Below are positions 9,749-42,951 of a DNA stretch of 64,000 nt, in pieces. The stretch is taken from NCBI GenBank assembly GCA_016204995.1, contig JACQJR010000001.1, positions 92,548-156,547 of the forward strand, given 5' to 3'. Source of the stretch: Candidatus Microgenomates bacterium (GTDB lineage: Bacteria > Patescibacteriota > Microgenomatia > UBA8517 > JACQJR01). Below the pieces are notes generated by a model. That model searched no databases and was not told the origin of the DNA. It saw only the letters and a program-made list of their open reading frames with translations. The position numbers and the translations under genes are program-made. Position 1 is the first letter of the stretch, and each line of letters starts with the position of its first letter.

Positions 9749-10455
9749 ATATCAATTTCGCCCGCTATGGCTGCCGGCCGATGATAAGGCAAACTGTGTC
9801 CAATATTTTTAAATACCTTCAGAATAGACTTGGAAATTTGAGCTTTGGTTTGGTAAGCCAATGCTGGCGGTAAAATTTTATCACTTCCTCCCCAAAGTAT
9901 CAGCACTGGCATGGCAAGTTTTCCTAAATTATAGTAATTATCTCCTGAACGGATGCTGCGTAAAATAAGCCTATTCCAAAAACCACTAGGCATTTCATAA
10001 TAGTGCGACAAAACCCACTTTCTAATATTAGGAAACCAGATTAACATACCACCTAATAATTTATAAAAAAAGTGTTTTAGTGATGATGGAGAGGAAACAG
10101 TAGAGGAGCAAATTACTAATCCCCTTACATTTTTATCACCTAAGGCTAGCGCTGTGGCCACTCTACCACCAAAAGAATGACCAAAAACTATATAAGGCAG
10201 ATTTCCCCATTTGTCTTTGACAAAATTACTAATCACAGTCTTATAACCATCGGTTGTTAAAGGAATCTCCGGCTTAAACGATTTGCCAAAACCAGGTAAA
10301 TCAACCGCTAAAACATGCCATCCTTTTTTGACTAGATCACGAGCTAAAGGCCTAAACTTTTCTTTATCCACTGCCCAACCATGAATCAACACAATATTTT
10401 TCTCTCCCTGCCTGCGCAGGCAGGCCTCGCCTAATTCAAAATAACTTAATTCCAC
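9721..10455 (-). CDS. Alpha/beta-fold hydrolase embedded in the dcw operon
   Basis: IVLIHGW (HG oxyanion motif), GHSFGG nucleophile elbow, C-terminal His. Its N-terminal extension carries an in-frame copy of the 18-bp palindrome (ACLRRQ). Confidence 0.7.
   Translation of the reverse strand: MELSYFELGEACLRRQGEKNIVLIHGWAVDKEKFRPLARDLVKKGWHVLAVDLPGFGKSFKPEIPLTTDGYKTVISNFVKDKWGNLPYIVFGHSFGGRVATALALGDKNVRGLVICSSTVSSPSSLKHFFYKLLGGMLIWFPNIRKWVLSHYYEMPSGFWNRLILRSIRSGDNYYNLGKLAMPVLILWGGSDKILPPALAYQTKAQISKSILKVFKNIGHSLPYHRPAAIAGEIDMWAKTFLKV
10407..10424. repeat. 18-bp perfect palindrome CCTGCCTGCGCAGGCAGG, copy 1 (in-frame in the hydrolase CDS, encodes ACLRRQ)
   Basis: Exact 18-mer read from the sequence. 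The palindrome has no stop codon in any frame. Confidence 0.8.
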
Positions 10456-11354
10456 ACATCCCCTTCAAAACCAATTAATTGAACTTCTGGTTCAAGAGCA
10501 ATCCCAAATTTTTCCTGCACTTTTTGTCTATAAACTTTCGCCAGTTTCACGAAATCTGCCGCCGTGCCACCGCCACTATTGATAAATAAATTACCATGCC
10601 AGGTAGCAATTTCTACCCCATCTTCCCGCGCTCCTTTGGCCCCGACTTCTTCCAATAACCAACCTGCCGGAATTTTACCAAACATAATCTTATCCGCCGG
10701 AATTCTGTCTAAAATATCCTGCGTTAATTTAGCCGCTTCTACATTTTTGAAAAAACTGCCGGGACAAGCGAGACCCGGATGATATCTAATTAATCTCTGT
10801 TGCATAATTTCTTGTGACGTTTTAATTAATTGAACACTATCTGCCGTGGCCGTTATATCAAATGCCGCCTCTAAAATAATTTCTCCAGTTTCTTTAAATC
10901 TGCTATGACGGTAAGATAAATTACATTCCGCGCGAGTGTATTTTTTTAGTTGATCCTCATGTGAATCGTATATCTGTACCCATAAAATTTTATCGGCAAT
11001 AGTTTGGCCGTAAGCTCCAGCATTGCCATAAATAGCTCCGCCAATTGTGCCGGGAATACCAACTAGCTTCTCAAAACCAGCTTTGCCTTTTTCATTAGCC
11101 CATTCCACAAGTGTTGCCAAATCAGTCCCCGATCCCACCGCCTCATTGATGGCAGTATAGGAATTTTTGATGACCAGTCCTTCAAAACCGCTGTCTGCCA
11201 CCAATAAATTACTGCCTCCGCCGATCACCAAGTAGGGCATTTGACCAGTTTGAGCTTTTCTAATTTCTTCTACCAGCCCTTCCTTAGTCTTTGCCTCTAC
11301 CAATTCGCGAATATGGCCGCCAATTTTAAGAGTAGTGATTTCGGAAAAGTTCAT
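10446..11354 (-). CDS. murB: UDP-N-acetylenolpyruvoylglucosamine reductase
   Basis: FAD-binding N-terminus TLKIGGHIREL...YLVIGGGSNLLVAD and the MurB C-terminal domain. Start overlaps murC stop by 4 nt. Confidence 0.88.
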   Translation of the reverse strand: MNFSEITTLKIGGHIRELVEAKTKEGLVEEIRKAQTGQMPYLVIGGGSNLLVADSGFEGLVIKNSYTAINEAVGSGTDLATLVEWANEKGKAGFEKLVGIPGTIGGAIYGNAGAYGQTIADKILWVQIYDSHEDQLKKYTRAECNLSYRHSRFKETGEIILEAAFDITATADSVQLIKTSQEIMQQRLIRYHPGLACPGSFFKNVEAAKLTQDILDRIPADKIMFGKIPAGWLLEEVGAKGAREDGVEIATWHGNLFINSGGGTAADFVKLAKVYRQKVQEKFGIALEPEVQLIGFEGDVWN

Positions 11355-12664
11355 TTAATTAAATGATATATTTGAAAAATATCGCCCGCACCTAATGTTA
11401 AAACTATATCACCAGGTTTAACATTAGTCTTAATCCATGATAGTATCGCCTTTTTGTCACCCGTATAAAAAGTATTGGTATGATTTTTCTTAATCTCTTC
11501 TGTTAATAATTCTCCTGACATACCTAAATCATCTGTTTCGCGAGCTGAAGCATATATATCCATAATTGCTACCATATCGGCATCACTAAAACTTCTTGAA
11601 AATTCAGATAGTAACGTCTTGGTTCGGGAATAAGTATGCGGTTGAAAAATTGCTACCAACCTCTTTTCTGGAAAATTTTGCTTAACTGCCGAAAGTACTG
11701 ATTTAATTTCGTGGGGAGTATGGGCATAATCATCATAAAAATCTGCTCCACGAAATTTCCCCATTTTTTCAAAACGGCGTCTCGTTCCAGTAAATTTTAC
11801 CAGTCCCTTTTTAATTTTTTCCTCACTTATATCGTAAAATCTAGCCACTTCGGCGGCTGCCGAGGCGTTTAATTGATTGAAATCTCCCAACACTTTAAGT
11901 TTAAAGTCACTCAAAGTATAATTTTTTACTGGGATAGATAAATTTTTAATTATTTCCATTATATTTTGATTATTTTCATTGGCAATTAATAATCCATCTG
12001 GTGGAACTTTGGCAAAAAATTCGCTAAAAGCTTTTTTGGTATCTTCTATGGTTGGATAAATATCCGGATGGTCGTGTTCAATATTAGTCGCTACTATCAC
12101 TTTGGGTGATAATAAAGAAAAACGTGGTCTATTATCTACCCCCGGTGAAATAGCAAATTCATCCGCCTCGGCCACAAACACTTTTCCTTCTTTATCATAT
12201 TTACCTGGTGCGCCTAATGAGTGGATATCACCAACACCTATTGCAAAGGAGGGGTGTAATCCGGCCGCCGCAAAAATATTAGCAATCATGGCCGAAGTAG
12301 TTGATTTACCACCCACCCCGCAAACGGCGATTGTTTCTTTACCACTTGCAAATTCTGCTAGAGCTTCAGCGTGAGTCATAACCGGAATTCCCATTTCGCG
12401 TGCCGCCACCACTTCGGGATTATTTAAACCACCATGAGCTCCAGTAGTAATTAATAATTCTGGTTTAGGCTTTAAATTTTCTTTATTAAAACCAATTTTC
12501 CAGGAAATTCCTCGCCTTTTTAGGGTTTCATCAGTCACAAACACCTCTGCTATATCACTACCAGTCACCTGAATTCCCAAATCTTGAGCACACAAGGCCA
12601 AAGCAGTCATACCGACTCCTTTAATCCCTGTAAAGTGGATAGTATGTAAGTTTTTTATATTCAT
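11351..12664 (-). CDS. murC: UDP-N-acetylmuramate--L-alanine ligase
   Basis: HFTGIKGVGMTALA (MurC N-terminal HFIGIGGxGMS-type motif), P-loop CGVGGKSTTSAM, DxYAHTPHE C-terminal motif. Confidence 0.88.
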   Translation of the reverse strand: MNIKNLHTIHFTGIKGVGMTALALCAQDLGIQVTGSDIAEVFVTDETLKRRGISWKIGFNKENLKPKPELLITTGAHGGLNNPEVVAAREMGIPVMTHAEALAEFASGKETIAVCGVGGKSTTSAMIANIFAAAGLHPSFAIGVGDIHSLGAPGKYDKEGKVFVAEADEFAISPGVDNRPRFSLLSPKVIVATNIEHDHPDIYPTIEDTKKAFSEFFAKVPPDGLLIANENNQNIMEIIKNLSIPVKNYTLSDFKLKVLGDFNQLNASAAAEVARFYDISEEKIKKGLVKFTGTRRRFEKMGKFRGADFYDDYAHTPHEIKSVLSAVKQNFPEKRLVAIFQPHTYSRTKTLLSEFSRSFSDADMVAIMDIYASARETDDLGMSGELLTEEIKKNHTNTFYTGDKKAILSWIKTNVKPGDIVLTLGAGDIFQIYHLIK

Positions 12665-12683
12665 AAAAACAAATTTAAATTAA

Positions 12684-12766
12684 CCAATTTCTAATTGTTC
12701 TAATTTCTAATCAAATCTCAATTCCCAAAATTTTAGGTCAATTAGGTTAATTAGAAATTAGAAATT
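12684..12766. repeat. AT-rich intergenic inverted-repeat element (copy 2, murE-murC spacer)
   Basis: Left arm aatttctaattgttctaatttctaat, ~30-bp spacer, right arm attaggttaattagaaattagaaatt. The arms are near-perfect reverse complements, giving a MITE/REP-like long hairpin. Confidence 0.6.
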
Positions 12767-14079
12767 TTATCCCCCATTCTTTTTACCCCTCCTTTCAGCG
12801 ATACTCTGGCTGCTTCCTGATCTGACCAGGGGTATTCCATATTATCAATGGCCATAGATCTTTCGTGGCCTTTGCCGCAAAGAGCAACAATATCACCCGG
12901 GGCAGCTAATTTTTGAATTGCCAAGGCGATCGCTTCACCTCTTTCCGGTACTTTAACCACCCATTTCCCGCCTTTTCTCCAATTAGTCTGTCCGTCCCAA
13001 ACTTGAGCCTCTTGCCTAATACCGCGCGTTATATCATCAATAATCCGTTCCACATCTTCTGTCCGGGGATCATCAGCCGTCAGTATAATAAAATCAGCCA
13101 ACTTTGCGGCCGCCTTCCCCATCAAAGGACGCTTTCCTAAATCCCGTTGACCAGGACAGCCAAATGCCACAATTAGTTTACTCTTAGGAGGTTTTATTTT
13201 ACCCAGGGCTGTCAGTAAATTTTCCAAAGATCCCGGCGTATGAGCAAAATCCACTACCACAGTAAATTTTTTCCCTTCATTTATTACTTCCATTCTACCC
13301 CTTAAACCGGCAAAACTACTAACTGCCTCTCTAATTTTATCCCAAGCCACATTTAAACTTCTCACTGCTCCAGCCGCCGCTAAAATATTCGCCGCGTTAT
13401 ATTCACCGATCAATTTAGTCTGGAAATTCATACTTTTACCTTCTGCCTTAACCTCAAATTCCATTCCACCAGGAGTTAAGTTGACACTTTTATATACGAT
13501 CATAGCATGTTTTGATACATCATAAGAACCATAAGAGATGATTTTAGCATCACTACTAGCTTTTTGTTGTAAATAATCAAACGATGGGTCATCTTGATTT
13601 AACACTGCCACTTTAACTCCCCTTAATAATTTTGCTTTAGCCTCCCGATATCTCTCAAAAGTTTTATGATAATCAAGGTGTTCATGGGTGATATTAGTTA
13701 CTACTCCTATCTTAAAATTACCACCCAAGACCCGATGCTGGTCTAAACCATGCGAAGTGGTTTCTATCACGACGTGAGTGACACCTCTCTGCCGAGCTTG
13801 AGCAAGGATTGATTGCATAACCCGCGGATCAGGAGTAGTCACATGCAAACCGGTATCAATTTCTTCACCATCTAAAAACGCCCCTAAAGTAGAAATTACG
13901 GCTGTTTTATAGCCAGCAATACTTAAAATATGACCGATTAAATGAGTGGTGGTGGTTTTGCCATCAGTACCTGTTACTCCAATGACGGTCAAATCGCGAG
14001 CCGGATAGCCATTTTTAATAACCTGCCAAACAGCTGTTAAAAGATGCTGAAAATTCCGCCACCGGCCGTAGAGATTCAT
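12751..14079 (-). CDS. murE: UDP-N-acetylmuramoyl-L-alanyl-D-glutamate--2,6-diaminopimelate (or L-lysine) ligase
   Basis: VIGVTGTDGKTTTTHLIGHIL P-loop and Mur ligase C-terminal domain. Positioned after ftsI, as in canonical dcw order. Confidence 0.88.
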   Translation of the reverse strand: MNLYGRWRNFQHLLTAVWQVIKNGYPARDLTVIGVTGTDGKTTTTHLIGHILSIAGYKTAVISTLGAFLDGEEIDTGLHVTTPDPRVMQSILAQARQRGVTHVVIETTSHGLDQHRVLGGNFKIGVVTNITHEHLDYHKTFERYREAKAKLLRGVKVAVLNQDDPSFDYLQQKASSDAKIISYGSYDVSKHAMIVYKSVNLTPGGMEFEVKAEGKSMNFQTKLIGEYNAANILAAAGAVRSLNVAWDKIREAVSSFAGLRGRMEVINEGKKFTVVVDFAHTPGSLENLLTALGKIKPPKSKLIVAFGCPGQRDLGKRPLMGKAAAKLADFIILTADDPRTEDVERIIDDITRGIRQEAQVWDGQTNWRKGGKWVVKVPERGEAIALAIQKLAAPGDIVALCGKGHERSMAIDNMEYPWSDQEAARVSLKGGVKRMGDKISNF

Positions 14080-14091
14080 AGCTAAAGTATA

Positions 14092-15837: not shown

Positions 15838-15840
15838 ACG

Positions 15841-16122: not shown

Positions 16123-16123
16123 C

Positions 16124-17014
16124 TTAAATCCTTTCCGCTATCCTTAATTTGGCGCTTTTCGCGCGGGGATTAGCCGCAATCTCCGCCTGACTTGGCCTAA
16201 TTGGTTTTTTAGTCAAAATTTTTAAATTATCCATCGCTTCCTGTTCTTTAAAAAAATTTTTAATAATGCTGTCCTCTCCCGAATGAAAACTAATCACTAC
16301 CAGCCTTCCTCTCTTGCCTAAAATTTCTACCGCACCTTTTAATCCCTCTTTTAAATTTTCCAATTCTCTATTTACCGCTATCCTCAAGGCTAAAAAAATT
16401 AAAGCTAGCGGACTAATACTTCTTTTCCGGCCTGCCTGTACTCTATCAATTACCGCCACCAGATCGCGAGTTTCCTCAAACTTTTTTAGCTCTCTGGCGC
16501 GGACAATAGCACGAGCAATTGTGCCAGCCACGTTTTTCGGCACAGTTTGGCTAAATAATTCATTTAATTGATCCTCTCTTAAGCTGTTTAACAGGTCGGC
16601 TGCCGTTACACCTTGAGCTTGCGGATTCATTCTCATATCCAACAGGTTGCTTTGAGTGAAAGAGAAACCTCGCGCACTGCCAAGCTGCGTGCTGGATATG
16701 CCTAAATCAAACAGCACTCCATCTACGGGCACGAAATTATGCTCCTTAGCCACTTCGGTGATCTTTGCGAAATTAGAATGGGCAAAAACAACATCAGGAC
16801 TCGCCTGCGCAGGCAGGCAGGATAAAAGATGTTGTCTAGCCGTCTCCAAGGCTTCTTTATCCCAATCCATCGCCAGTACTCTGGCACCTTGTTCACAGAT
16901 AGCCCTGGTGTGTCCTCCGCCACCTAAAGTTGCGTCTATGTACCGACCTTGTTTTTTAATGTGCAAATAATCTACTACCTCTTTAATTAATACCGGGATA
17001 TGGTTACTTTCCAT
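16124..17014 (-). CDS. rsmH: 16S rRNA (cytosine1402-N4)-methyltransferase RsmH (MraW)
   Basis: HIPVLIKEVVDYL, SAM-binding DATLGGGGH, and LLDMRMN motifs. Contains an in-frame palindrome variant (CLPAQAS). Confidence 0.9.
   Translation of the reverse strand: MESNHIPVLIKEVVDYLHIKKQGRYIDATLGGGGHTRAICEQGARVLAMDWDKEALETARQHLLSCLPAQASPDVVFAHSNFAKITEVAKEHNFVPVDGVLFDLGISSTQLGSARGFSFTQSNLLDMRMNPQAQGVTAADLLNSLREDQLNELFSQTVPKNVAGTIARAIVRARELKKFEETRDLVAVIDRVQAGRKRSISPLALIFLALRIAVNRELENLKEGLKGAVEILGKRGRLVVISFHSGEDSIIKNFFKEQEAMDNLKILTKKPIRPSQAEIAANPRAKSAKLRIAERI
16802..16821. repeat. Palindrome family variant CGCCTGCGCAGGCAGGCAGG inside rsmH (in-frame, encodes LPAQA)
   Basis: Core GCCTGCGCAGGC is perfectly palindromic; extended by CAGGCAGG. 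Confidence 0.6.
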
Positions 17015-17447
17015 CTTCCCGCCTTTCCCTGTACAACTTTTCTATTTGAGCGCCCGCTTGATCCATAATCTCTTTTTCATGCTCTTCCCAAGCGTTTTTA
17101 TCCCAAATTTCCACCCTATTTCCTAAACCGGCAAAAATAACTTCTCGTTTGATTTTGGCGTAATTGCGTAATGAAAGTGGCACAATAAAGCGGCTTTGCT
17201 TATCCAATTCCAGTTCAAACGATCCGGCCAACAAAAACCTATCAGTGTCACGGGCAGATAGGGTGGCCAGTTCACCACCGGTAAGACGAGATACCAGCTG
17301 GCTCCAGGAATTTTTATCAACCAGCAGGATACAGCCTTCATACCAACGGCTAGCCACCAAATTGTTGCCCAGTTCGCTCCTAACTTTTTTAGGAACAGCC
17401 AGGCGGCTTTTTTCATCAAGTTTGGCAAAGTAAGCACCCAACAGCAT
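17004..17447 (-). CDS. mraZ: Transcriptional regulator MraZ
   Basis: Duplicated MraZ motifs LDEKSRLAVPKKVRSEL and LDKQSRFIVPLSLRNYA. First gene of the dcw operon. Confidence 0.9.
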   Translation of the reverse strand: MLLGAYFAKLDEKSRLAVPKKVRSELGNNLVASRWYEGCILLVDKNSWSQLVSRLTGGELATLSARDTDRFLLAGSFELELDKQSRFIVPLSLRNYAKIKREVIFAGLGNRVEIWDKNAWEEHEKEIMDQAGAQIEKLYRERREDGK

Positions 17448-17456
17448 AATAATTGG

Positions 17457-17476
17457 GCAGGCCTGCCTGCGCAGGC
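17457..17476. repeat. Palindrome family variant GCAGGCCTGCCTGCGCAGGC, intergenic, 10 bp upstream of the mraZ start, flanked by GGGCAGGC direct repeats
   Basis: Read directly from the sequence. GGGCAGGC occurs at 17454-17461 and 17500-17507. Confidence 0.6.
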
Positions 17477-17543
17477 TAGAAGTTGGGGGATGGGCAGGCT
17501 AATCATGACTGAATGTGATGATTTTCCCCCACTTTTCACCACT

Positions 17544-17658: not shown

Positions 17659-18384
17659 CTATTGGGTTGCTACGAAGACGCCGAGAGTTTTAGTGGCCCC
17701 GTCGGATAATACTTGCCATTTGTTGCCATCCCAGACTTGCCAAATACCTACCGTCGTAATTTTACCCCTCTGGGAACTTGAGCCGCTGGTAAACACCCCG
17801 TATGGACCTGCTACTACTGTGCCGCTAGACTCGCTGGGTAAACCGCTAGTTTGCATTACCACATAAAACCCAGTCGGAGTTTTATCTAAAGTCAAAGAAA
17901 ACTTATCATCAGTAGAAGCTAACTTTTTAGTTTTAGACAATAGAGATACGCCAGTTGCCACTTTAGCCAAAACTTTACCACTACTATTGCGTAATCTCAA
18001 AGTCAAAGTAATATCTTTAACCCCTTTATCATAACGACAAACTCCGGATGAACAAGTCCCAAGAGTTAATTTACGCTCTAAACTGCTTTTCCCGCTGACA
18101 GAAACTGATCCCGGTACTCCTTGCAGTACCCCGGCCGCAGTATTGTAAACTAGCTCATAATCCAGGGTAGCCACCGCTGAATCAATGCCAGTTACTGATA
18201 AAGTTAGTTCCTGGCCAACACCATCAGGCGTTAAAGCAACATAAGGCAAGGGGATGGTGGGAACCACGACCTCATCGGTGGATGGAGTGGTATCTTTAGA
18301 ACGGAGATTAAAAATAGAAAAACCGGCGATAGCGACAACTAAGACACCTAAAATGAGTAAAAATATTGGCAGGTAGGATTTCAT
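17659..18384 (-). CDS. Hypothetical membrane-anchored extracellular protein
   Basis: N-terminal TM/signal (IFLLILGVLVVAIAGFSIF) and a Ser/Thr/Gly/Val-rich beta-type domain. Sits directly upstream of the dcw promoter region. Confidence 0.45.
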   Translation of the reverse strand: MKSYLPIFLLILGVLVVAIAGFSIFNLRSKDTTPSTDEVVVPTIPLPYVALTPDGVGQELTLSVTGIDSAVATLDYELVYNTAAGVLQGVPGSVSVSGKSSLERKLTLGTCSSGVCRYDKGVKDITLTLRLRNSSGKVLAKVATGVSLLSKTKKLASTDDKFSLTLDKTPTGFYVVMQTSGLPSESSGTVVAGPYGVFTSGSSSQRGKITTVGIWQVWDGNKWQVLSDGATKTLGVFVATQ

Positions 18385-18387
18385 AGG

Positions 18388-18500
18388 AAATTTCTAATTT
18401 TCAATTTCTAATTTCTAATGAATTTTCAATGACTCAATGTTTAAAACATTAAAAATTGATCCCGATTCAATCGGGATTGATTGAAAATTGTAAATTAAGA
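18388..18500. repeat. AT-rich intergenic repeat element (copy 3) carrying the CCCGATTCAATCGGG palindrome
   Basis: aaatttctaattttcaatttctaatttctaatg ... gatCCCGATTCAATCGGGattgattgaaaattgtaaattaagaattaaaaatt. Lies downstream of the glyQS stop. Confidence 0.55.
18461..18475. repeat. Palindrome CCCGATTCAATCGGG (family 2, intergenic copy)
   Basis: Exact 15-bp palindrome. Longer CCCCGATT(C/G)AATCGGGG copies occur at 20156-20172 and 32111-32127. Confidence 0.75.
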
Positions 18501-20074: not shown

Positions 20075-20635
20075 CTAATTTAAAAACTTTAGAAATCTTC
20101 TGGTGCGAAGTCTCGCTTGGATTAAATTCTCAATAGTGGCATCTACATCAGCTTGCCCCGATTCAATCGGGGCTGACGGGTGCAAAAATCCTAAATCGGT
20201 CAATATGGCTTTTTTAAAGCGAATCACAAATTCAGCCATCCGGCTATAATCAATCTTGGTTAAATAGTTAAAAGCACTTTCCAGAATTTCATAAACCTTT
20301 TTTTGCTCCTGCTCTTCCCGCGTTAATTTATTAACCACTTCAGCCAAATGATAGGCAATGCCGACTTTGGCTAAATCTTTGCGCCATTCGTTGAAATTAT
20401 TTTTTACCTCTACTTCGGTAATAATATTAAAAGTTTTGCCCCGGGCCAAAAAAATACTTACTTGATTAAATAACTCTACACTGCCGCGCTTACGGCTCGT
20501 CGGTCTGCGCACGCCTTTGGCAATCACCCGCAGTTTCCCCTGCTGTTCAGAAAAAATTGTCAAAAGCCTGTCTGCCTCACCAATATTCCTTCTTGCCAAA
20601 ATAATCGCTTCTAGTTTATAGCTTCTTTGTTTCAT
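20075..20635 (-). CDS. recO: DNA repair protein RecO (short form)
   Basis: N-terminal OB-fold region LEAIILARRNIGEADRLLTIFSEQQGKLRVIAKGVRR matches the RecO signature. Carries an in-frame CCCCGATTCAATCGGGG copy (SAPIESGQ). Confidence 0.65.
   Translation of the reverse strand: MKQRSYKLEAIILARRNIGEADRLLTIFSEQQGKLRVIAKGVRRPTSRKRGSVELFNQVSIFLARGKTFNIITEVEVKNNFNEWRKDLAKVGIAYHLAEVVNKLTREEQEQKKVYEILESAFNYLTKIDYSRMAEFVIRFKKAILTDLGFLHPSAPIESGQADVDATIENLIQARLRTRRFLKFLN
20156..20172. repeat. Palindrome CCCCGATTCAATCGGGG (family 2) in-frame within recO
   Basis: Exact 17-bp palindrome; translated as PIESG on the minus strand. Confidence 0.75.
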
Positions 20636-20649: not shown

Positions 20650-21408
20650 CTAAGAACAGTTTTTGGCTTTACGCCAGCCGGCGGCCACTGCTTCAACTTC
20701 TGTACAAAACCAACGCTCACCACTTTCCGTATTAATCATTGTTTTATCATAACTTTTACAACCGAGTAAATGATAAATTTTATCGCCACTAGCGCTGATA
20801 TTACCCTTGATTAGGCAGTTGGGCGATTGGCCTGCCTGCGCAGGCAGGGCTGTTGGGTCATTAGATTCTTGAATTACACCTTGTACTTGGCAGAAATCGC
20901 TCGCCCATAAACCGCGGCCGGCTTCCCTTGCTTCTTCTTCAGCAACTAAAAATTTATCTTTATATTTTACATCAGGTGGAAAAGTAGAAACGCGCGCCAT
21001 GCCTAACCTAATTAACTCTTCATTTACCATTAAATTATCTACATAAACGTATCTTAACAATCTACCGTATTTGTCCGTTTCTGAAATATCTTTTTCTAGT
21101 CTGACTTTTTTGCCCAACACCAGCTCTTTATTTTTCCTGGTGGACTCTTCTACCCCACATTTTCCGCTCTCTGGCGTATCCATACCGATATAACGAAGTT
21201 TTTTCCCGCCTTCTATCTCAATGGTATCTCCGTCAATAATTCGTGTTACCGCAACAAATTGACTGGCGATCGCAGAAGTATCTGTGGCACTAGGAACAAC
21301 TGAATTAGTAGGAAAGCTGGGAGATTTCTGATCGCGACTTTCGCCCCATAAAATAAAAGCGGCCAAGATGCTGATAATCCCGACTGCGGCTAGAAGTTTT
21401 TCTCTCAC
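20650..21408 (-). CDS. Secreted thermonuclease (staphylococcal-nuclease/SNase fold) with a Cys-containing C-terminal extension
   Basis: N-terminal TM/signal. SNase motifs VTRIIDGDTIEI, LRYIGMDTPE, YGRLLRYVYV, AREAGRGLW. C-terminal CxxxGNISASGDKIYHLLGCKSY...WFCTEVEA domain. An 18-bp palindrome sits in the linker (ALPAQAGQ). Confidence 0.8.
   Translation of the reverse strand: MREKLLAAVGIISILAAFILWGESRDQKSPSFPTNSVVPSATDTSAIASQFVAVTRIIDGDTIEIEGGKKLRYIGMDTPESGKCGVEESTRKNKELVLGKKVRLEKDISETDKYGRLLRYVYVDNLMVNEELIRLGMARVSTFPPDVKYKDKFLVAEEEAREAGRGLWASDFCQVQGVIQESNDPTALPAQAGQSPNCLIKGNISASGDKIYHLLGCKSYDKTMINTESGERWFCTEVEAVAAGWRKAKNCS
20831..20848. repeat. 18-bp palindrome CCTGCCTGCGCAGGCAGG, copy in the nuclease CDS linker (LPAQAG)
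   Basis: Exact 18-mer. Confidence 0.8.
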
Positions 21409-27611: not shown

Positions 27612-28448
27612 GTGGTGGAAGAAACAACTAAAATAGCTGTTTTCAAAGGCAAAGAAATTAGGAAAACTATTTATAAAAATGAATGGTGGTTTTCCATTGT
27701 TGATATTGTTGAAGCGTTAACCGGAACAGATAGACCAAGAAAATACTGGAGTGATCTCAAAAAAAAGTTACTTAAAGAAGGTTATGCTGAAGTGTCCGAA
27801 AAAATCGGACAGTTGAAGTTAGAAGCCCCTGATGGAAAGTTAAGAGAAACAGACTGTGCTAATACCGAGACTATATTTAGAATAATTCAAACTATTCCCT
27901 CACCTAAGGCTGAACCATTTAAGAGGTGGTTAGCAAGAGTGGGTTACGAGAGAATCCGAGAAATAGAAGATCCGGAGCTAGCCACTAAAAGAACCAGGGC
28001 GTTATATAAAGCCAAGGGATATTCTGATGCTTGGATTGAAAAACGAATGAGGGGAATTGAAATAAGGGAAACTTTAACTGATGAATGGAAAAAACGAAAA
28101 GTAGGCGGAGAAACAGAATATGCCATATTAACTGCTGAAATATCCAAAGCTACCTTTGGAATGACACCCAGCCAGTATAAAAAGTTTAAGAATCTAAAAA
28201 GAGAAAATTTAAGAGACCATATGAACGACCTTGAATTAATTTTCTCCATGCTTGGAGAAGCCTCAACAACAGAGATAGCTAAAAATAAGGATGCTCAAAG
28301 ATTTGTCCAAAATAAAAAAGCTGCGCAAGAAGGGGGAACTGTGGCAGGCAACGCTAGAAAAGAGCTGGAAAAAAGAAGCGGTCAAAAGGTTTCTATCAAA
28401 CAAAACTACCTTACCAAACCACAAAGTAGTAGATTACTAGAAAAGTAA
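27612..28448 (+). CDS. Bro-N domain protein, DinD (DNA-damage-inducible protein D)-like
   Basis: N-terminal IAVFKGKEIRKTIYKNEWWFSIVDIVEALTGTDRPRKYWSDLKKKL fits the Bro-N consensus. About 278 aa, like E. coli DinD. The only plus-strand gene in a long minus-strand run. GTG start in the track; start uncertain. Confidence 0.6.
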   Translation: MVEETTKIAVFKGKEIRKTIYKNEWWFSIVDIVEALTGTDRPRKYWSDLKKKLLKEGYAEVSEKIGQLKLEAPDGKLRETDCANTETIFRIIQTIPSPKAEPFKRWLARVGYERIREIEDPELATKRTRALYKAKGYSDAWIEKRMRGIEIRETLTDEWKKRKVGGETEYAILTAEISKATFGMTPSQYKKFKNLKRENLRDHMNDLELIFSMLGEASTTEIAKNKDAQRFVQNKKAAQEGGTVAGNARKELEKRSGQKVSIKQNYLTKPQSSRLLEK

Positions 28449-30987: not shown

Positions 30988-31078
30988 AATTGACCTAATT
31001 AACCTAATTTCTAATTGACCTAAAATTTGTACATTGGGATTTGATTAGAAATTAGAACAATTAGTAATTAGAATAATT
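30988..31078. repeat. AT-rich intergenic inverted-repeat element (copy 4)
   Basis: taattgacctaattaacctaatttctaattgacctaaaatttgtacattgggatttgattagaaattagaacaattagtaattagaat. Confidence 0.6.
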
Positions 31079-32570
31079 TCACAATCACATATTGGTCAGT
31101 TTTCTCCAATACTTTATATTGCTCCATAACTTCTTGAGTTTGTTTATCAAAATTTACTGACACATAATACTCGGCACCTAACCTTTTGATCATATACTCC
31201 ATCGGTAAAGTCACAAATGGCCAACCGTTACGATTTGTTTGGTATAAGAAAGCCGTATCACCGTTGTAAGGTGCGATAATGCGCGCATCGGGTGGAGTAA
31301 GTCTTTGAACCGCAGCGCCCGCTGTGATAATTTCCGGGTGATTAATTTTATAATATTCTTTAACTTGATAAGCGGATAAGGCAAATCCTATTAAAATGCT
31401 AGTAATCAAGATGCCTCTAGTTAAAAATTTATTGAATTCTTTTAAATTCCACAACAGTAAAGTTCCGTAAGCTAAAGATAAACAAACTGCAGGTATAATC
31501 AGGGTCTGATAATAATCATGACGAACACTGGCTGTTGCCACTACCGTCATATAAAGAATTTGTGACGCAACAAAAATATGAACTATGTAGGGAAAAGCTT
31601 TAGCTTTATTAACCATTCCAAACAAAAATGGCAAAACCGCTCCTATTCCTAAAATTAATTGGCCTAGACGGGCGCTAAATATCCAATACCACCAAGCCGG
31701 CCGAAAACGAATATTGTCGCCATTAAAGGCCCATTGCCAATGCGGTATACCAACTAAATTGGTAATTTGATTCATCCAAATTCGCCAAGAGAGAAAGGGA
31801 ATTAAAGATAATGACAAAAATATCCATAATTTAGGTTGTTTAAGCCAGCCAACTAATCCAAATTTAACAACGGCTAGATAAACCATTGGTAAAGCATAAA
31901 AACCGATGTAGGGTTTAAGGAGTAAAGCCATGGCAAAGAAAAAAGCAGAAACAAAAATATTTATGGCCCACTTCCCATCAATCCATCTGATAAAGAACCA
32001 TAAGGAGACTAAAATGAAGGCCACCGCCATTGGTTCTGGCAAAATTACCCTAGAAAAATAAATATTAAATGGCAAAAAGGCAAAGAAAAAGGCAGCCAGC
32101 AGTCCTCCAACCCCGATTGAATCGGGGCCAGCTGAACCTGCCTGCGCAGGCAGGTCAAAAAACCTTCTGCCCAATAGAAACATCATTACCACCGAAACTA
32201 AAGAGAATAACACTGACAATAATCTACCCCACATCTCCAAAGACCAATTAGGATATAGTTTATAAAGCAAGGCATGAGCCGCGTTAAAAACCGGAAACTC
32301 TACATAGCGCAAACCACGAGGATTTTCATAACTTGTTTGGGTGCTGGAAAGATCATGATATTGAGGATAAAGCAGATTGATACCATCTTTGACAAAAGTT
32401 CTACTAACCGAAGAAGTGTCTGCTTGTCTCCAGCTGTGCCAGTCAGCAATCGGGCTATCTATTTTATAAAGCCGCACAATCAGCGCCATTACCACTATGA
32501 GAGTTAATACTCCATACTCAAAATATGGCAAGTTGATTATTTTTTTAGACAAACCCTTGATTAGCATCAT
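31068..32570 (-). CDS. GT-C-type integral-membrane glycosyltransferase (ArnT/PMT_2-like)
   Basis: About 12 TM helices. The WHSWRQADTSSVSR first-loop motif is typical of polyprenyl-P-sugar-dependent GT-C enzymes. Contains a composite in-frame insertion of both palindromes (DLPAQAGSAGPDSIGVGG). Confidence 0.6.
   Translation of the reverse strand: MMLIKGLSKKIINLPYFEYGVLTLIVVMALIVRLYKIDSPIADWHSWRQADTSSVSRTFVKDGINLLYPQYHDLSSTQTSYENPRGLRYVEFPVFNAAHALLYKLYPNWSLEMWGRLLSVLFSLVSVVMMFLLGRRFFDLPAQAGSAGPDSIGVGGLLAAFFFAFLPFNIYFSRVILPEPMAVAFILVSLWFFIRWIDGKWAINIFVSAFFFAMALLLKPYIGFYALPMVYLAVVKFGLVGWLKQPKLWIFLSLSLIPFLSWRIWMNQITNLVGIPHWQWAFNGDNIRFRPAWWYWIFSARLGQLILGIGAVLPFLFGMVNKAKAFPYIVHIFVASQILYMTVVATASVRHDYYQTLIIPAVCLSLAYGTLLLWNLKEFNKFLTRGILITSILIGFALSAYQVKEYYKINHPEIITAGAAVQRLTPPDARIIAPYNGDTAFLYQTNRNGWPFVTLPMEYMIKRLGAEYYVSVNFDKQTQEVMEQYKVLEKTDQYVIVKLF
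32111..32127. repeat. Palindrome CCCCGATTGAATCGGGG (family 2) in-frame in the GT-C gene, 9 bp from an 18-bp palindrome
   Basis: Exact 17-bp palindrome. Confidence 0.75.
32137..32154. repeat. 18-bp palindrome CCTGCCTGCGCAGGCAGG (extends to a 20-bp palindrome ACCTGCCTGCGCAGGCAGGT), in-frame in the GT-C gene
   Basis: Exact. Confidence 0.8.
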
Positions 32571-36019: not shown

Positions 36020-36144
36020 ACACCTTGATTACACCTTCGGGGTGTCTTACGATTACACCTAAGGTCATTAGATATTTCTCTACCATTATTCCCGATGTGT
36101 CAACCTAATACACTCCCGATGTGGAACATCTTCACACATCAGGA
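36020..36144. promoter_or_regulatory. Repeat-rich intergenic region upstream of the acetyltransferase gene: two pairs of 10-bp direct repeats at 24-bp spacing plus an inverted copy
   Basis: GATTACACCT at 36027 and 36051. TCCCGATGTG at 36090 and 36114, with an inverted, imperfect copy (TCCTGATGTG, read on the minus strand) at 36135-36144. The ACACCttcggGGTGT hairpin lies between. The 166-bp gap suggests an internal promoter/operator. Confidence 0.3.
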
Positions 36145-38401: not shown

Positions 38402-39722
38402 TAAAGTCCCATTCTACCGTTTTTTCAAAGCCTATATTTTCTAACTTATATCTCACTTCATCTTGGGGATCAAAAATGGGCTGAGCATAACGCATCAGAT
38501 AAATAACATTAAACTTATTTTTTGATATGTCTTCTATTTTGACATCTGGCACAAATTTAGCATAATAGTGATATGCTTCTCTTTGCCCATTACCGATAAA
38601 CAAAGTAGCGGCAGTTTTTTGACGAGCGTTTTCTTCAATCCAAATCACGGCTTTGCGCCAGTCCTCCCGATGAAAACGGGGATTAAAAAGATAAATAGAA
38701 GAGGCAATAATATTTACTATTAATATACCGCCTATTACTATTAATTTTAAGACTTTTTGATTAATTGATATACCTCCATAAGCCACCAGCAGATAAAAAG
38801 CTGGTAAAATAAAAATTAATCTAAAGTAGGAAAAACCAGAAAATATGGTGCCAAATAAGGATGATAAAATTAATGGTCCGGCCAACCACCACCAAAGTAA
38901 TTTAGTCTTGGAAAATTGCGATAAACTTTCTATTAGGGTTATAAAAAATGGTACAGCAGCTACTGCCACGATACTACCATAAAATATTTTGTTGTAGGAA
39001 GAAATCCGGCCAATTATAAATTTAACTGGTACTAAAGCCAACTCTTTTAAATCAGTTCTGCCCAAAGTTTGCCACCAAAGCGGCGCATTTTGGCGCACCC
39101 CAACTCCACTTTGTATTTGAGTTAATAAAGTAGGAATCCAAGGAAGAAAAATAACTCCTGTAGCAATAATCCATCCAAAAACATACACAATATACTTTTT
39201 TTCATAAATAATTAGATAAACCACTAAACTTGCTAACAAAAATACCGGTAAATAATCTGTATATAGAAGAGCTGCGCTAAAAATAGTCAGCCATAAAAAT
39301 TTCTTGGTAATCACAAAATAGACAACAATCGTCGCCAAAAGCGTTTCCATTGAATACATTCTGGCTTCTTGAGAATAATAGAGGTGAAGAGGGGCCGTTG
39401 CTAAAAATAAGGCAGACACTAAACCAATATTTTTGTTAAACAGCTTTTTACCAATTAAAAAGACTATATAAATAGTAGATATCCCTAAAACTACCGATAA
39501 ACTTCGTGCTGCTACCTCGCTTGATCCAAGCATCATCATCCATACTTTTAGCATAAGGTAGTAAAGGGGTGGGTGGAAATCTCCCGGAGAAAATTTAGTT
39601 AAGATATCAGAAAAAGTTAGATCACGAGCCGTTAAAATACTGGTAGCCTCATCCAGCCATAAAGATTGGTTAAGGGAAACAAATCTAAGTATAAGACCAA
39701 GTATAAGTATCAGAAAAATCAT
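38364..39722 (-). CDS. GT-C-type integral-membrane glycosyltransferase (ArnT/PMT_2-like)
   Basis: ILRFVSLNQSLWLDEATSILTARDL is the first-loop acidic motif typical of ArnT-like enzymes. About 11 TM helices and a C-terminal soluble domain. Confidence 0.65.
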   Translation of the reverse strand: MIFLILILGLILRFVSLNQSLWLDEATSILTARDLTFSDILTKFSPGDFHPPLYYLMLKVWMMMLGSSEVAARSLSVVLGISTIYIVFLIGKKLFNKNIGLVSALFLATAPLHLYYSQEARMYSMETLLATIVVYFVITKKFLWLTIFSAALLYTDYLPVFLLASLVVYLIIYEKKYIVYVFGWIIATGVIFLPWIPTLLTQIQSGVGVRQNAPLWWQTLGRTDLKELALVPVKFIIGRISSYNKIFYGSIVAVAAVPFFITLIESLSQFSKTKLLWWWLAGPLILSSLFGTIFSGFSYFRLIFILPAFYLLVAYGGISINQKVLKLIVIGGILIVNIIASSIYLFNPRFHREDWRKAVIWIEENARQKTAATLFIGNGQREAYHYYAKFVPDVKIEDISKNKFNVIYLMRYAQPIFDPQDEVRYKLENIGFEKTVEWDFNGVGVWKYENRY

Positions 39723-40534
39723 TTAGCTCCTTTTCCAGTTAACAAATATTCTAAAATTCCCACAAAAACTCCTAAGTCATAAACAAGCTTAAAAATTAAA
39801 AATTGTGGTTTTAAATAAATGAAAGATTTAACTAAACCTACTATTAGGGATATAGGTAGTAAAATTCTAATCAACCCCACTAATATTCCTAATATCCCCA
39901 GTTTATAACGCCGTTTGGCCGTCCACTTTGCTTGCAAAAAAACTTCTGTCAAGTTTTCTGGATTTTTATGATAGAATTTGGCACCTTCTGCCGCTACTGC
40001 TTCATATCCCAATTTCTGGCTTAAACTCCAATCGTCAGTGTAATGTCCGCCTTTTTCAAATCCCCCTACCAGATTAAATTCACTGGCCAGAATTGCCCGA
40101 AAAACTTTTTGTTTGTCCGGATAATTTTTAGGGTGTCTTTTTCCTTTTTCCCAGCCTTCGTTAATACCCCAACATTCTGACCAGATATTTTCTGGATTTA
40201 CTACATACTCTTCGCGACTCCAAGTCCCTTTGGTTTTTCCCTGTAGAATGGGTTCCACTAGCTTTTTAATAAAGTCTTTATCAAAAGTCATATCCGCATC
40301 CACAAATACCAAAATCTCACCTTTTGCTTTACTTGCCCCCAAATTCCTCGCCTCTCCTGGACCTTTATGCTCTTTTCTTAAAATTTGACATTTCTTGATT
40401 GTGTTATCAGTAGACCCATCATCCACCACTATCACTTCCATGTTCTTATAACTCTGCTGGGCAAGTGAAGATAAACACTCTCCTATTACCTTTTCCTCAT
40501 TAAAAACCGGAATAATAATAGTTACTTTTTCCAT
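39719..40534 (-). CDS. Glycosyltransferase family 2 with C-terminal TM helices
   Basis: VTIIIPVFNEEKVIGECLSSLAQQSY...VIVVDDGSTDNT. Start placed at the internal Met MEKVTIII (40534); the 40654 start in the track would overlap the upstream GT4 by 92 nt. Confidence 0.75.
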   Translation of the reverse strand: MEKVTIIIPVFNEEKVIGECLSSLAQQSYKNMEVIVVDDGSTDNTIKKCQILRKEHKGPGEARNLGASKAKGEILVFVDADMTFDKDFIKKLVEPILQGKTKGTWSREEYVVNPENIWSECWGINEGWEKGKRHPKNYPDKQKVFRAILASEFNLVGGFEKGGHYTDDWSLSQKLGYEAVAAEGAKFYHKNPENLTEVFLQAKWTAKRRYKLGILGILVGLIRILLPISLIVGLVKSFIYLKPQFLIFKLVYDLGVFVGILEYLLTGKGAK

Positions 40535-40562
40535 CTTGAATGAAATGAAAGATAGTCCACGT

Positions 40563-41504
40563 CTATAGCTCTTTAAATAAATTTTCGTATTGTTCTGCAA
40601 TCTTATCCCAGGAAAATTTTTCCGCTTGTTTGCGAGGTTTATTCTTCCAATCAATTTTTAAAGCTTCATCAATGGCAGTAGCATATTTTTCTAAATCTGA
40701 CACATCGGTTAAAATACCAGCTTGTCCAATAATTTCCCTCCGGGATTGATCATCGGGTGCCACCACAACCAGCCCACAAGCCATAGCTTCTACATAAACA
40801 ATGCCGAAAGATTCTCTATCCCAAGAAGGCAAAACAAATAAATCGCAAGAACGGTAATATTTTGGCAAATCTTTATAACCAGCCTGAATTATTTGAAACC
40901 TGTCTTCACCTAAAAGCTGCATACCCATCTTTTGTAATTTATCTTCCTCTGATCCTGCACCAATAATTAAAAGTGAACCTTTGTTAAATTCTGCCATTGC
41001 CCGTATCGTCCTCTCATGATGTTTGTACCATTCTAAAGCCCCTACGCTAAGGATAATAGGTTTAGGTAAATTAATTTTTACCTTCTGGCTAGTGGTAGAG
41101 AATTTTTCTAAATCAACGCCGTTATTAATTTTTACAATCCTTGTTTTCCACGCCCATTTTTGAGCCCAATGTTTTTCAAAATCAGTTAAAGCTACATAGA
41201 CATCAGGCGCAGTTAGGAAAATATTCCAAATATCATCCTTACCTACTCCGGCCTGACCGGAAATAATAATTTTATAACCACCAGATATTCTCCCTATGCT
41301 TGCTTTCAAAGCTTGTAATCTACCATTGGTAGGAATAACCAAATCATATTTTCCTTTTATTATCCGGCTAAAAGAATCTGCGTCCTGGCCACTTAAAACT
41401 TCTACTTCATGATTCTGGTTAAGTCTAGCCGAAAGCTCTGCCACATAAGTTTCTACCCCCCTATTAACTTTATTTTGATAGCGTGATAAAAAGGCAATTC
41501 TCAT
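40563..41504 (-). CDS. Glycosyltransferase family 4 (GT-B)
   Basis: MRIAFLSRYQNKVNRGVETYVAEL...FGIVYVEAMACGLVVVAPDD. Confidence 0.85.
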   Translation of the reverse strand: MRIAFLSRYQNKVNRGVETYVAELSARLNQNHEVEVLSGQDADSFSRIIKGKYDLVIPTNGRLQALKASIGRISGGYKIIISGQAGVGKDDIWNIFLTAPDVYVALTDFEKHWAQKWAWKTRIVKINNGVDLEKFSTTSQKVKINLPKPIILSVGALEWYKHHERTIRAMAEFNKGSLLIIGAGSEEDKLQKMGMQLLGEDRFQIIQAGYKDLPKYYRSCDLFVLPSWDRESFGIVYVEAMACGLVVVAPDDQSRREIIGQAGILTDVSDLEKYATAIDEALKIDWKNKPRKQAEKFSWDKIAEQYENLFKEL

Positions 41505-41517
41505 CCTTCGACTCCCT

Positions 41518-42951
41518 TCATTCGCTCAGGACAGGTTTTTTCTCCCACAACCATATCCCTGGCGTAACTTCCTCTATCTTAGTATAGTTGTCTTTGATCC
41601 ACTTCACAATTTTCTGCGGTTGGTAGGTTCCCAAATCAAACCAATTACCTTGCGAGGGAATGCGCCAGAAAATAAATTGAGGTAGACCTGCCTGCGCAGG
41701 CAAGTTTTCCTCCCAACGGCTGATAATTTCTCTTTGCACACCCGGAATTTCCAGATACCAGCCAAAATTATCTGTCCAGCGTTTAGGAGGTAACCGATTA
41801 GACATGACATAGAGATTAGCCGGCAGCCCTAAAAGGAAGACTTTTTCTGCTGGTGCGACTCTTTGGGAGATTAAATCGGCCAGTGCTAACTCATCTCTGC
41901 CATAAAAACGAGCTTCTTTACCCCATTCCAAAGTAATCACTGAACGGTGAACAAAAAATAACAATAAGGCACTAGGCACTAGAAAATAGGCAATAGTAGA
42001 AGAGGAAATTTTGATCTTTGACAACAAAATACCATATAAAATTACTAAAAATGCCAAAGCAATTTGAAAATGAAAAAAAGAAAAGCGGGGATAGATAGCA
42101 ATCAGGCTGGCCAGAAAAAATAATAAAATTAATTGACTGTCTTTATCTTTTAAGATCTTTCTTCGCCGCCACAAGAAAGCCAGAGGGAAAAATAGAATAC
42201 CCAAAACAATTAACTCTCTTTTGGAAGAAATAGACTGTAAATATCCAGGAAATTTACCAAACCAAAGAAGAGGATAAATAATCACCCAATTTATAAAGTC
42301 TCCTAAAGCTCCTTCTTGGATCAGACGAATTAGTAATGGTATTCCAAAGATTAAGAGTCCAATTAGAAAAGATTTTGGGCCAGAGGCCCATCCGCCTTTG
42401 GCGGACAATTGATTAAAACTTTTCCTTTTGATAAATATTAAATACAAAAAGGCCAAGATAAAAAATATTATCGCTGTTTGTTTAATAAAAATCGCTACCG
42501 ACAGAGCAAGGCCTGCCAGAAAAATATTGCCCCGTAAGATAAATAAGGTACCCAATAAAATCGGGGGGATGATTGCCAAGTCAAACCATAGCATATTCCC
42601 ATCTAAAAATGGCTGCAGCAATATATAAATAAATAAAGTTAAAATAGCTACTATATTATTGTGTGTTAATTGCTTCGTAATTAAAAAAATCAAAATATCG
42701 CTTGTTAAAATTACGGCCCATGCCAGCATCTTTAAAACCCATAGCTCGTGACCTAAGATATAATAAAACCATGATAAAACCATTGTCAGTAGGGGTGGGT
42801 AAGGATGAATCATATCCTTGTAAATCAGAAATTGTGACTCGCGTAAATAAGGATAAGCCAACATTTCCGGCCAAGCAGTAAATTGCAGATTAATTAAGAA
42901 AAAAAGGTGAATCCCTAGAAGAATTACTATCCAAAACCAAAATTTATTCAT
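41518..42951 (-). CDS. Polytopic membrane protein, possibly another GT-C-type transferase (hypothetical)
   Basis: At least 12 TM helices and no soluble catalytic domain. Contains an in-frame palindrome variant (ENLPAQAGLPQF). Confidence 0.45.
   Translation of the reverse strand: MNKFWFWIVILLGIHLFFLINLQFTAWPEMLAYPYLRESQFLIYKDMIHPYPPLLTMVLSWFYYILGHELWVLKMLAWAVILTSDILIFLITKQLTHNNIVAILTLFIYILLQPFLDGNMLWFDLAIIPPILLGTLFILRGNIFLAGLALSVAIFIKQTAIIFFILAFLYLIFIKRKSFNQLSAKGGWASGPKSFLIGLLIFGIPLLIRLIQEGALGDFINWVIIYPLLWFGKFPGYLQSISSKRELIVLGILFFPLAFLWRRRKILKDKDSQLILLFFLASLIAIYPRFSFFHFQIALAFLVILYGILLSKIKISSSTIAYFLVPSALLLFFVHRSVITLEWGKEARFYGRDELALADLISQRVAPAEKVFLLGLPANLYVMSNRLPPKRWTDNFGWYLEIPGVQREIISRWEENLPAQAGLPQFIFWRIPSQGNWFDLGTYQPQKIVKWIKDNYTKIEEVTPGIWLWEKKPVLSE
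41687..41704. repeat. 18-bp palindrome variant CCTGCCTGCGCAGGCAAG (one mismatch), in-frame in the membrane protein gene
   Basis: Read from the sequence. Confidence 0.7.

Follow-up and report, generated by a model that had tools for sequence, protein, structure and literature searches.

The window analyzed here, a 64,000-nucleotide stretch of a Candidatus Microgenomates genome (contig JACQJR010000001.1, positions 92,548 to 156,547), carries six copies of an 18-bp perfect palindrome, CCTGCCTGCGCAGGCAGG, for which we use the name PAL. On balance, PAL is probably an ultra-short, non-autonomous palindromic insertion module, a "selfish hairpin" similar to repetitive extragenic palindromic (REP) elements and Rickettsia palindromic elements (RPEs), which decays neutrally and survives in the permissive loops of proteins. 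Several parts of this reading are matters of observation: compared with homologs, PAL is a precise insertion, the same unit being present in unrelated contexts of many phyla, and the surviving genic copies are enriched for the small, flexible peptide LPAQAG in surface loops.

A search allowing up to three mismatches places the six copies between 10.4 and 41.7 kb of the window, hence within 31 kb, the remaining 33 kb having none. Three of them are exact (10407-10424, 20831-20848, and 32137-32154), one has a single mismatch (41687-41704), and the other two have two mismatches each (16800-16817 and 17462-17479). No match at the same tolerance was obtained in 100 dinucleotide-preserving shuffles of the window, in which further decayed copies with three to six mismatches do not exceed chance either. 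The sixfold recurrence, reported in an earlier note made from this DNA alone, therefore stands, and so do four of the coordinates given there, the other two (16802 and 17457) being displaced by 2-5 nt from their true starts at 16800 and 17462. With a G+C content of 78%, against about 38% for the window around the copies, PAL is the sole recurring GC-rich perfect palindrome of at least 12 bp in the window. The single strand forms a hairpin (-6.5 kcal/mol) in which a stem of 7 bp is closed by a GCGC loop, and the layout of PAL can be written as (CCTG)2-CG-(CAGG)2, of which variants with one more CCTG or CAGG unit exist.

Five copies lie inside open reading frames (ORFs) and are translated in frame, the sixth being intergenic; all the host genes and their neighbors are on the minus strand. 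Copy 1 (10407-10424) belongs to an alpha/beta hydrolase, ORF 9721-10455, in which it is read in the CLRRQ frame as ACLRRQ(G), residues 11-17. The other four genic copies use the LPAQAG frame: copy 2 (16800-16817), which has the sequence CTCGCCTGCGCAGGCAGG followed by an extra CAGG, encodes CLPAQAS, residues 66-72 of RsmH (ORF 16124-17014); copy 4 (20831-20848) encodes LPAQAG, residues 188-193 of an SNase-family nuclease (ORF 20650-21408), in the linker joining the SNase domain to a C-terminal Cys-rich domain; copy 5 (32137-32154) lies at residues 139-145 of a GT39/PMT_2-like protein (ORF 31068-32570), where LPAQAG forms the first six residues of a 13-residue insert; and copy 6 (41687-41704) gives LPAQAG at residues 417-422 of a GT39-like membrane protein (ORF 41518-42951). 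The intergenic copy 3 (17462-17479) is found 14 nt upstream of the mraZ start codon at 17447 on the minus strand, rather than at the 10 bp first proposed, and abuts a GGCAGG sequence that creates a second, overlapping palindrome at 17456-17467. The earlier description of five unrelated host genes is right as to the five in-frame genic copies but not as to the last two hosts, which we consider distant paralogs because PF13231 occurs in the homologs of both.

The most transparent evidence for insertion comes from copy 6. None of 119 homologs with 44-60% identity carries its residues LPAQAG, and the homologs have RWE(E/N)-N-PP where the window protein has RWEE-N-LPAQAG-LP. The coding strand reads GAA AA[C TTG CCT GCG CAG GCA GG]T CTA CCT, so that removal of the 18 bracketed nucleotides leaves AAT CTA CCT, namely N-L-P, matching the N-P-P of the homologs; copy 6 is thus an exact insertion of 18 nt and six residues, the deletion of which restores the ancestral codons. 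The whole 13-residue segment containing copy 5, LPAQAGSAGPDSI, is likewise found in none of 120 homologs (51-65% identity), and its DNA consists of PAL, 9 nt, and then a second hairpin, CCCCGATTGAATCGGGG. In RsmH the PAL segment aligns to gaps in the solved structures 1wg8 and 1m6y, within a loop of variable length among 80 homologs; the SNase linker holding copy 4 is hypervariable across 119 homologs; and the closest homolog of the hydrolase (P0361, 46% identity) is five residues shorter at the PAL loop. Hence, these three copies are all situated in variable loops or linkers.

Structural predictions agree with this picture. AlphaFold2 (AF2) models of the two GT39-like proteins, built on alignments of their homologs, have mean predicted local distance difference test (pLDDT) scores of 91.3 for ORF 31068-32570 and 92.6 for ORF 41518-42951. 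In the former, pLDDT falls below 50 only at residues 143-147, inside the insert, which is predicted to form a loop between helices 111-138 and 154-165; in the latter, local minima at residues 181-190 and 411-420 coincide with its two inserts. Both clear inserts are thus modeled as low-confidence loops of otherwise confident structures. The insertional reading of the earlier note, together with its placement of the inserts in linkers and loops, is consequently upheld by homolog alignments, solved RsmH structures, and model confidence alike, and the finding that was to count against it, namely the same residues at the same positions of distant orthologs, did not materialize. The one candidate for an ancient LPAQ motif, the SLPAQ or SLPAH of some SNase homologs, has unrelated AT-rich codons and was rejected. 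As a separate observation, the loop corresponding to residues 60-75 of our RsmH carries other low-complexity inserts, (G)R-SSLVVG... and ...ANDQRP... among them, in many homologs from soil (L120-L199), apparently Acidobacteria-like. Such inserts have the look of hairpin repeats from another family that have been translated, and the RsmH loop may be a general sink for hairpin elements.

The window also holds sister modules of PAL, retrieved by scanning it for GC-rich hairpins. Among them, PAL2, CCCGATTSAATCGGG, has three copies: CCCCGATTGAATCGGGG at 32111-32127, which supplies the rest of the 13-residue insert of the GT39-like ORF 31068-32570 (minus strand), 9 nt from PAL copy 5; GCCCCGATTCAATCGGGGC at 20155-20173, translated as APIESG in RecO (ORF 20075-20635, minus strand); and the intergenic ATCCCGATTCAATCGGGAT at 18459-18477, between a class II aminoacyl-tRNA synthetase gene and ORF 17659-18384. 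Moreover, two abutting GC-rich hairpins of 15 nt, TGGGCCagaGGCCCA and TCCGCCtttGGCGGA, occupy positions 42376-42405 of ORF 41518-42951 (minus strand), where the pair folds as two hairpins (-12.3 kcal/mol) and encodes a 10-residue insert, SAKGGWASGP, that is missing from 118 of 119 homologs, P0122 having a diverged version; AF2 places this insert in a loop with pLDDT of about 63. The genome of the window therefore carries at least two to three sister modules of 15-19 bp which behave like PAL.

At the position taken by PAL copy 6, other homologs have PPAGG, PPVGG, PLTGG, SPAGG, or SSAGG, and the DNA of two of them reveals an intact or degraded palindrome of the form T(C/T)CGCCAGC(C/T)GGCGGA. The finding of different modules at the same loop, some of them degraded, indicates that permissive loops collect modules and that old modules decay; the series PPAGG, PPVGG, PLTGG, SSAGG traces the progressive degradation of this older sister module, and PAL itself has one or two mismatches in three of its six window copies. 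All the PAL copies of the window arose long after the divergence from relatives that share about 60% protein identity. The exact 16-mer TCCGCCAGCTGGCGGA occurs at seven places among PAL-bearing loci and at none in control loci; its 55 matches in viral contigs were counted without a matched control, and nothing is concluded from that number.

How widespread is the palindrome? In a scan using one genome per species, the exact 18-mer was found in at least 119 stretches from species-representative genomes. Among the matches listed, 70 loci are labeled as Patescibacteria (the overall estimate being about 70-88), in essentially every major group: WWE3, Dojkabacteria, Saccharibacteria, Minisyncoccia, Uhrbacteria, and Magasanikbacteria, then Woese-, Gottesman-, Beckwith-, and Shapirobacteria of the Microgenomates, and Nomura-, Kaiser-, Yonath-, Zambryski-, Wildermuth-, and Staskawiczbacteria of the Paceibacteria/Parcubacteria. 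The same matches include 15 loci of Bacteroidota, ten low-GC third-party (TPA) assemblies labeled Gammaproteobacteria or Pseudomonadales, and a remainder formed by a few Ignavibacteria-like or WOR-3 genomes plus high-GC genomes, in which chance or long hairpin contexts are a plausible explanation. PAL is therefore no peculiarity of a single lineage, the identical 18-mer being shared by all major classes of Patescibacteria, Bacteroidota, and some phage contigs. Because the flanks are unrelated between loci, the unit is just the 18 bp. Its density is patchy, given that PAL is missing, and GC-rich hairpins are few, in two syntenic relatives of the window (about 20 kb each).

Viral contigs yielded 25 matches to PAL, against 2, 1, and 0 for three palindromes of identical base composition. 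In one low-GC (38%) viral contig, which encodes an HNH endonuclease and the large subunit of a terminase, PAL is read in the LPAQAG frame within an RGP-like glycosyltransferase gene (L214:893-910, L217:8187-8204); phages could be vehicles for PAL. With regard to the labels of the matches, several TPA metagenome-assembled genomes (from ERP119705 and binchicken co-assemblies; loci L097, L226, L020, L022, L026, L032, L040, L044, L067, L075, and L106) look mislabeled. Assembly CAYIKF01, which comprises L097 and L226, is a Microgenomates relative, since L226 is syntenic with the window, and the public taxonomic labels of such genomes, at least of CAYIKF01, appear to be wrong.

Two groups of loci have distinctive arrangements. 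In Sphingobacteriales bin43 (Bacteroidota), intergenic mosaics assembled from several short hairpin modules include PAL as one of their tiles (L033:3430-3580 and 5720-5790, as well as L012, L071, L076, L082, and L101), with tiles such as AAAGCGTTAACGACGGTAGCGG-PAL and GGCGTGTTAAAACGCCC; the flanking tiles recur in either orientation, in the manner of bacterial interspersed mosaic elements (BIMEs). In five syntenic loci of Paceibacteria/Parcubacteria (L027:1725-1770, L037:3530-3575, and L042:362-410, plus L109:710-760 and L038:6770-6830 on the minus strand), PAL lies within a 5' fragment resembling tRNA-Gln, TGCCGGnTCG[PAL]TCTAATGGTAGGA, between tRNA positions 10 and 11. An intact tRNA-Gln is located 34-400 nt from each interrupted fragment, and in L038 the interrupted copy amounts to a near-complete second tRNA, scoring 40 bits in Rfam versus 60 bits for the intact one. 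The arrangement suggests a tandem tRNA-Gln pair of which one member was inactivated by an old insertion. The Rfam scan around these copies returned tRNAs only, with no intron, and a paper on group I introns in the tRNAs of Patescibacteria makes no mention of palindromes.

The anatomy of the sites provides further clues. At 104 low-GC sites, the sole signal in the flanks is a purine (R) at position -1 in 78% of cases, mirrored symmetrically by a pyrimidine (Y) at +1; intergenic sites have the same R|Y signal, which is thus not a coding effect. No target-site duplication was found at these sites, the palindrome does not extend past 18 bp above chance level, and, apart from the pyrimidine at +1, the flanks of 99 sites share no microhomology with the arms of PAL. 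Within the window, the half-site CCTGCCTG occurs only once outside PAL and so is not enriched alone, and there are no additional CCTGCCTGC...GCAGGCAGG pairs; PAL has no internal segment.

Considering the low-GC sites in open frames of at least 150 codons, the LPAQAG frame is used 45 times, PACAGR 11 times, and CLRRQ four times (chi-square of about 48 on these counts), and in 37 of the 45 LPAQAG cases the peptide follows a D, G, N, or S residue. According to rough reasoning from typical codon-position composition, the R|Y preference and codon composition do not predict this bias, which we read as selection on the encoded peptide, implying that the PAL segment is translated. Among loci labeled as candidate phyla radiation (CPR), 52 of 74 PAL sites are in long ORFs (about 70% genic) and 19 are intergenic. 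The non-coding fraction of CPR genomes is roughly 10%, and the intergenic excess over this assumed value fits the purging of genic insertions. In Bacteroidota, 12 of 16 PAL sites are intergenic.

From these properties a sequence of events can be envisaged. PAL would enter DNA as a complete 18-bp unit, supplied in trans, with little choice of site other than an R^Y step; selection would then remove the majority of insertions in genes, sparing the ones that lie in a permissive loop and use the mildest frame, which would go on to decay neutrally. For the insertion step we prefer a blunt, two-fold-symmetric cut-and-patch process, in which a symmetric R|Y break would be joined to the self-complementary 18-bp duplex, because a perfect palindrome with a symmetric R|Y target and no duplication is what would be expected of a blunt symmetric break. 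The alternative would be an enzyme encoded elsewhere in the genome that recognizes hairpins in single-stranded DNA. The identity of PAL across phyla would then reflect horizontal spread among co-occurring bacteria of groundwater and sediments and their phages. A bolder proposition, which we regard as possible but rather doubtful, is that PAL, together with TCCGCC-AGCT-GGCGGA, CCCGATTSAATCGGG, and the other sister hairpins, constitutes a new class of horizontally shared insertion modules of 15-19 bp. It comes in two versions: such modules could be the smallest mobile DNA known, inserted by blunt symmetric cut-and-patch without target duplication, or else the scars of templated double-strand-break repair with a fixed self-complementary oligonucleotide in the reduced genomes of Patescibacteria and their neighbors.

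A number of observations weigh against the interpretation of PAL as a selfish insertion module. Insertion, as the earlier note proposed, is well supported; the mobility that it also proposed is an inference that goes a step further, as neither a mobilizing enzyme nor a filled/empty polymorphism between close strains was found. In the search for close relatives with empty sites, scanning metagenomes with RsmH gave nothing above 48% identity, protein searches reached at best relatives at 57-66% identity, and Logan contigs of the same organism carry identical PAL copies. The strain pair L226/L227, which is 99.7-99.99% identical, has no difference in palindromic modules, only single-nucleotide polymorphisms and a 33-bp tandem duplication (L226:11304-11367 vs. 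L227:9623-9653) that lies in the spacer upstream of a GT2 gene and is unrelated to palindromes. No transposase, HUH enzyme, integrase, or recombinase is recognizable among the approximately 58 ORFs of the window, and no gene family recurs beside PAL across 144 loci. The clustering with other hairpins that REP-like elements would lead one to expect is not apparent (8.4% vs. 6.4%, p = 0.33). With only 18 bp, PAL is smaller than any element with a transposition mechanism known to us. Finally, exact identity across phyla could also reflect selection on function, and PAL is exact in the five tRNA-Gln-linked loci, the flanks of which have diverged, even if this is weak evidence because the loci were ascertained on the exact 18-mer.

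The last points lead directly to an explanation that we deem unlikely, according to which PAL is a selected cis-element tolerated in coding DNA, be it the binding site of a conserved dimeric protein, a DNA-uptake signal used by CPR competence systems, or a hairpin for RNA processing or termination. It would account for the identical 18-mer in very distant lineages, for an abundance 10-25 times that of composition-matched palindromes, for the copy in the mraZ 5' region amid TGGG-type repeats, and for the exactness in the tRNA-Gln-linked loci. Yet a functional site would hardly be distributed as sparsely and unevenly as six copies in 31 kb with none in the other 33 kb or in the two 20-kb relatives; half of the window copies are mutated; half-sites are not over-represented, unlike those of uptake sequences; and T-runs of the terminator type are not generally present. 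Furthermore, the copies are insertions in arbitrary proteins, not the outcome of point mutation at fixed positions, and the frame bias indicates that selection sees the peptide. Of similarly low probability in our judgment is that PAL is a true REP/REPIN element, moved by a REP-associated tyrosine transposase (RAYT) or an IS200/IS605-like Y1 (HUH) transposase encoded elsewhere. The short GC-rich hairpin and the lack of target-site duplication, as with Y1 transposases, are in line with this possibility, as are the BIME-like mosaic intergenic arrays of Bacteroidota and the fact that REP families can be intragenic and shared by several species (PMC3733652). What speaks against it is the lack of a GTAG/CGTC-like tag, or of any conserved tetranucleotide, beside the stem at the 104 sites, along with the occurrence of PAL as singletons rather than inverted dimers, its perfect 18 bp compared with the 20-40 bp of REPs, the genic location of about 70% of the CPR copies, and the absence of a Y1 transposase from the window or recurring near PAL in the 144 loci.

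Two other explanations have very little probability. Each copy could have arisen locally by template switching or quasi-palindrome correction, the sequence being convergent, for instance through slippage-prone CCTG/CAGG repeats; this idea draws on the (CCTG)2-CG-(CAGG)2 layout with its extra-unit variants, on the downstream flank of the copy at 41687, TCTACCT, which resembles a PAL arm, and on the overlap between the TCCGCC..GGCGGA module at the same site and the pre-existing N-P-P codon string. It is largely refuted by the flanks of the 99 sites, which do not resemble the PAL arms beyond the +1 pyrimidine, and by the fact that over 100 unrelated contexts contain the same 18 nt down to the GCGC at the center, an outcome beyond the reach of local copying. 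Marginally less credible still is that PAL leaves the proteins unaltered, either because the RNA loses or skips it, in the manner of a mini-intron or bypass element, or because it is a sequencing or assembly artifact. The location of PAL inside the tRNA-Gln-like sequence, at positions 10/11, might be taken as a hint of removal, were that context not a truncated pseudogene beside an intact tRNA-Gln, and short-read contigs of three sequencing runs do break 2-4 nt after PAL. The 45:11:4 frame bias and the D/G/N/S context are, however, expected only of a translated segment; all insert lengths are multiples of three, the mutated copies are still in frame, and copy 4 is seen in four independent assemblies.

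The last of these points derives from three Logan assemblies of separate sequencing runs, all with the PAL copy at 20831, which is thus not an assembly artifact. The Logan contigs in question (L230, L231, and L232) stop 2-4 nt past this copy, at window positions 20827-20829. Illumina reads are subject to sequence-specific errors after GC-rich inverted repeats, and this is the likely cause of the contig ends, heterogeneity of the population at the site being another possible one. The mraZ 5' region (17448-17500) deserves a separate comment. It has no obvious Shine-Dalgarno sequence, and copy 3 is bracketed there by repeats of the GGGCAGG/TGGG type (TGGGCAGG around 17452, TGGGGGATGGGCAGG around 17485) that resemble MraZ operator boxes, so that the insertion of PAL may have split the operator of MraZ.

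Some other features of the window were noted as well. Plus-strand genes are few, and within the section of the minus-strand glycosylation cluster from 20 to 45 kb there is a single one, ORF 27612-28448, which encodes a protein with a Bro-N domain, a phage-associated DNA-binding domain. Beyond about 46 kb the G+C content of the window falls from about 0.40 to 0.30-0.34. A perfect palindrome of 22 bp in murA (7648-7669), AAACCAGGCCATGGCCTGGTTT, encodes RPWPGFPTD, presumably a conserved MurA motif, and is thus probably a coding coincidence and not an insert.

Should palindromes of 15-18 bp indeed be able to spread, whether inside a genome or from one genome to another, mobile DNA could be far smaller than REPs and miniature inverted-repeat transposable elements (MITEs), and an insertion or repair activity outside the known ones would be implied. 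In the densely coding CPR genomes, the modules continually supply essential proteins, RsmH, RecO, and glycosyltransferases among them, with small insertions in loops, and they confound alignments, gene calling, and possibly short-read assembly. The exact 18-mer common to Patescibacteria, Bacteroidota, and phages could also serve to trace DNA exchange among episymbionts, their possible hosts, and viruses. In the literature searched, including that on REPs, RPEs, and RAYTs in connection with CPR, we found no previous description of PAL, LPAQAG, or the sister modules, in keeping with the earlier note, which knew of no such elements in CPR-like genomes.

Which known elements, then, does PAL most resemble? 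REPs are imperfect palindromes of 20-40 bp with an unpaired GTAG or CGTC tag and a short tail, mostly extragenic and often arranged as inverted dimers (PMC3733652); intragenic GTAG/CGTC REPs have been reported in several phyla, as have in-gene RPEs of Rickettsia (Di Nocera et al. 2013, PMC3733652). PAL shares with REPs and BIMEs the nature of a short GC-rich stem-loop present in many copies, with some families common to different species, and with the REPs occasionally found in ORFs the addition of a few residues in loops or termini. It differs in being an untagged, tailless, and perfectly symmetric singleton of 18 bp, predominantly genic in CPR and identical in sequence across phyla; no RAYT gene was seen in the window, and none recurs beside PAL in the 144 loci.

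The comparison with RPEs made in the earlier note is apt with regard to function. RPEs, reportedly described by Ogata and colleagues in 2000, are palindromic repeats that interrupt functional genes of a reduced genome without breaking the frame and are apparently tolerated at surface positions, and PAL too is inserted in frame at permissive positions of functional ORFs. The likeness ends there, for RPE-1 has about 100-150 bp encoding 30-50 residues and RPEs are, to our knowledge, restricted to Rickettsia, whereas PAL has 18 bp and six residues, ranges across the Patescibacteria and beyond, with a host here among the Microgenomates, and bears no sequence relationship to them; the short palindromes of REP type are the closer kind.

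Other parallels come from organelles. The GC clusters of yeast mitochondria, the PstI palindromes of Neurospora mtDNA, and the double-hairpin elements of Allomyces mtDNA are short GC-rich palindromic modules scattered in small AT-rich genomes. They are sometimes in frame in protein genes, sometimes adjacent to one another, and shared between species, and the Neurospora palindrome has an 18-nt core, the size of PAL; they are organellar elements, however, with unrelated sequences, and GC clusters are reported to have short target duplications that are not found at PAL. The short motifs HIP1 of cyanobacteria, DUS of Neisseria, and USS of Haemophilus have a density of about one per kb and originate from point substitutions favored by a drive. 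Like them, PAL is a short motif of exact sequence that is enriched in genes as well as in spacers and prefers certain frames in genes, but it is about 100 times rarer (six copies in 64 kb), arises as an insertion, and has no enriched half-site. MITEs, which are derived from DDE-transposase elements and combine terminal inverted repeats with an internal segment of 70-300 bp and a target-site duplication, are distinguished from PAL by the two last features, and an intervening sequence acting at the RNA level would be unconstrained in position and frame by the peptide, in contrast to the 45:11:4 bias and loop-type preceding residue of PAL. Short palindromic repeats inside genes were known already, and PAL works like these known elements while being a member of none, from which it is set apart by its smaller size, its perfect symmetry, the lack of a tag, a mostly genic location in CPR, and a sequence that is identical across phyla.

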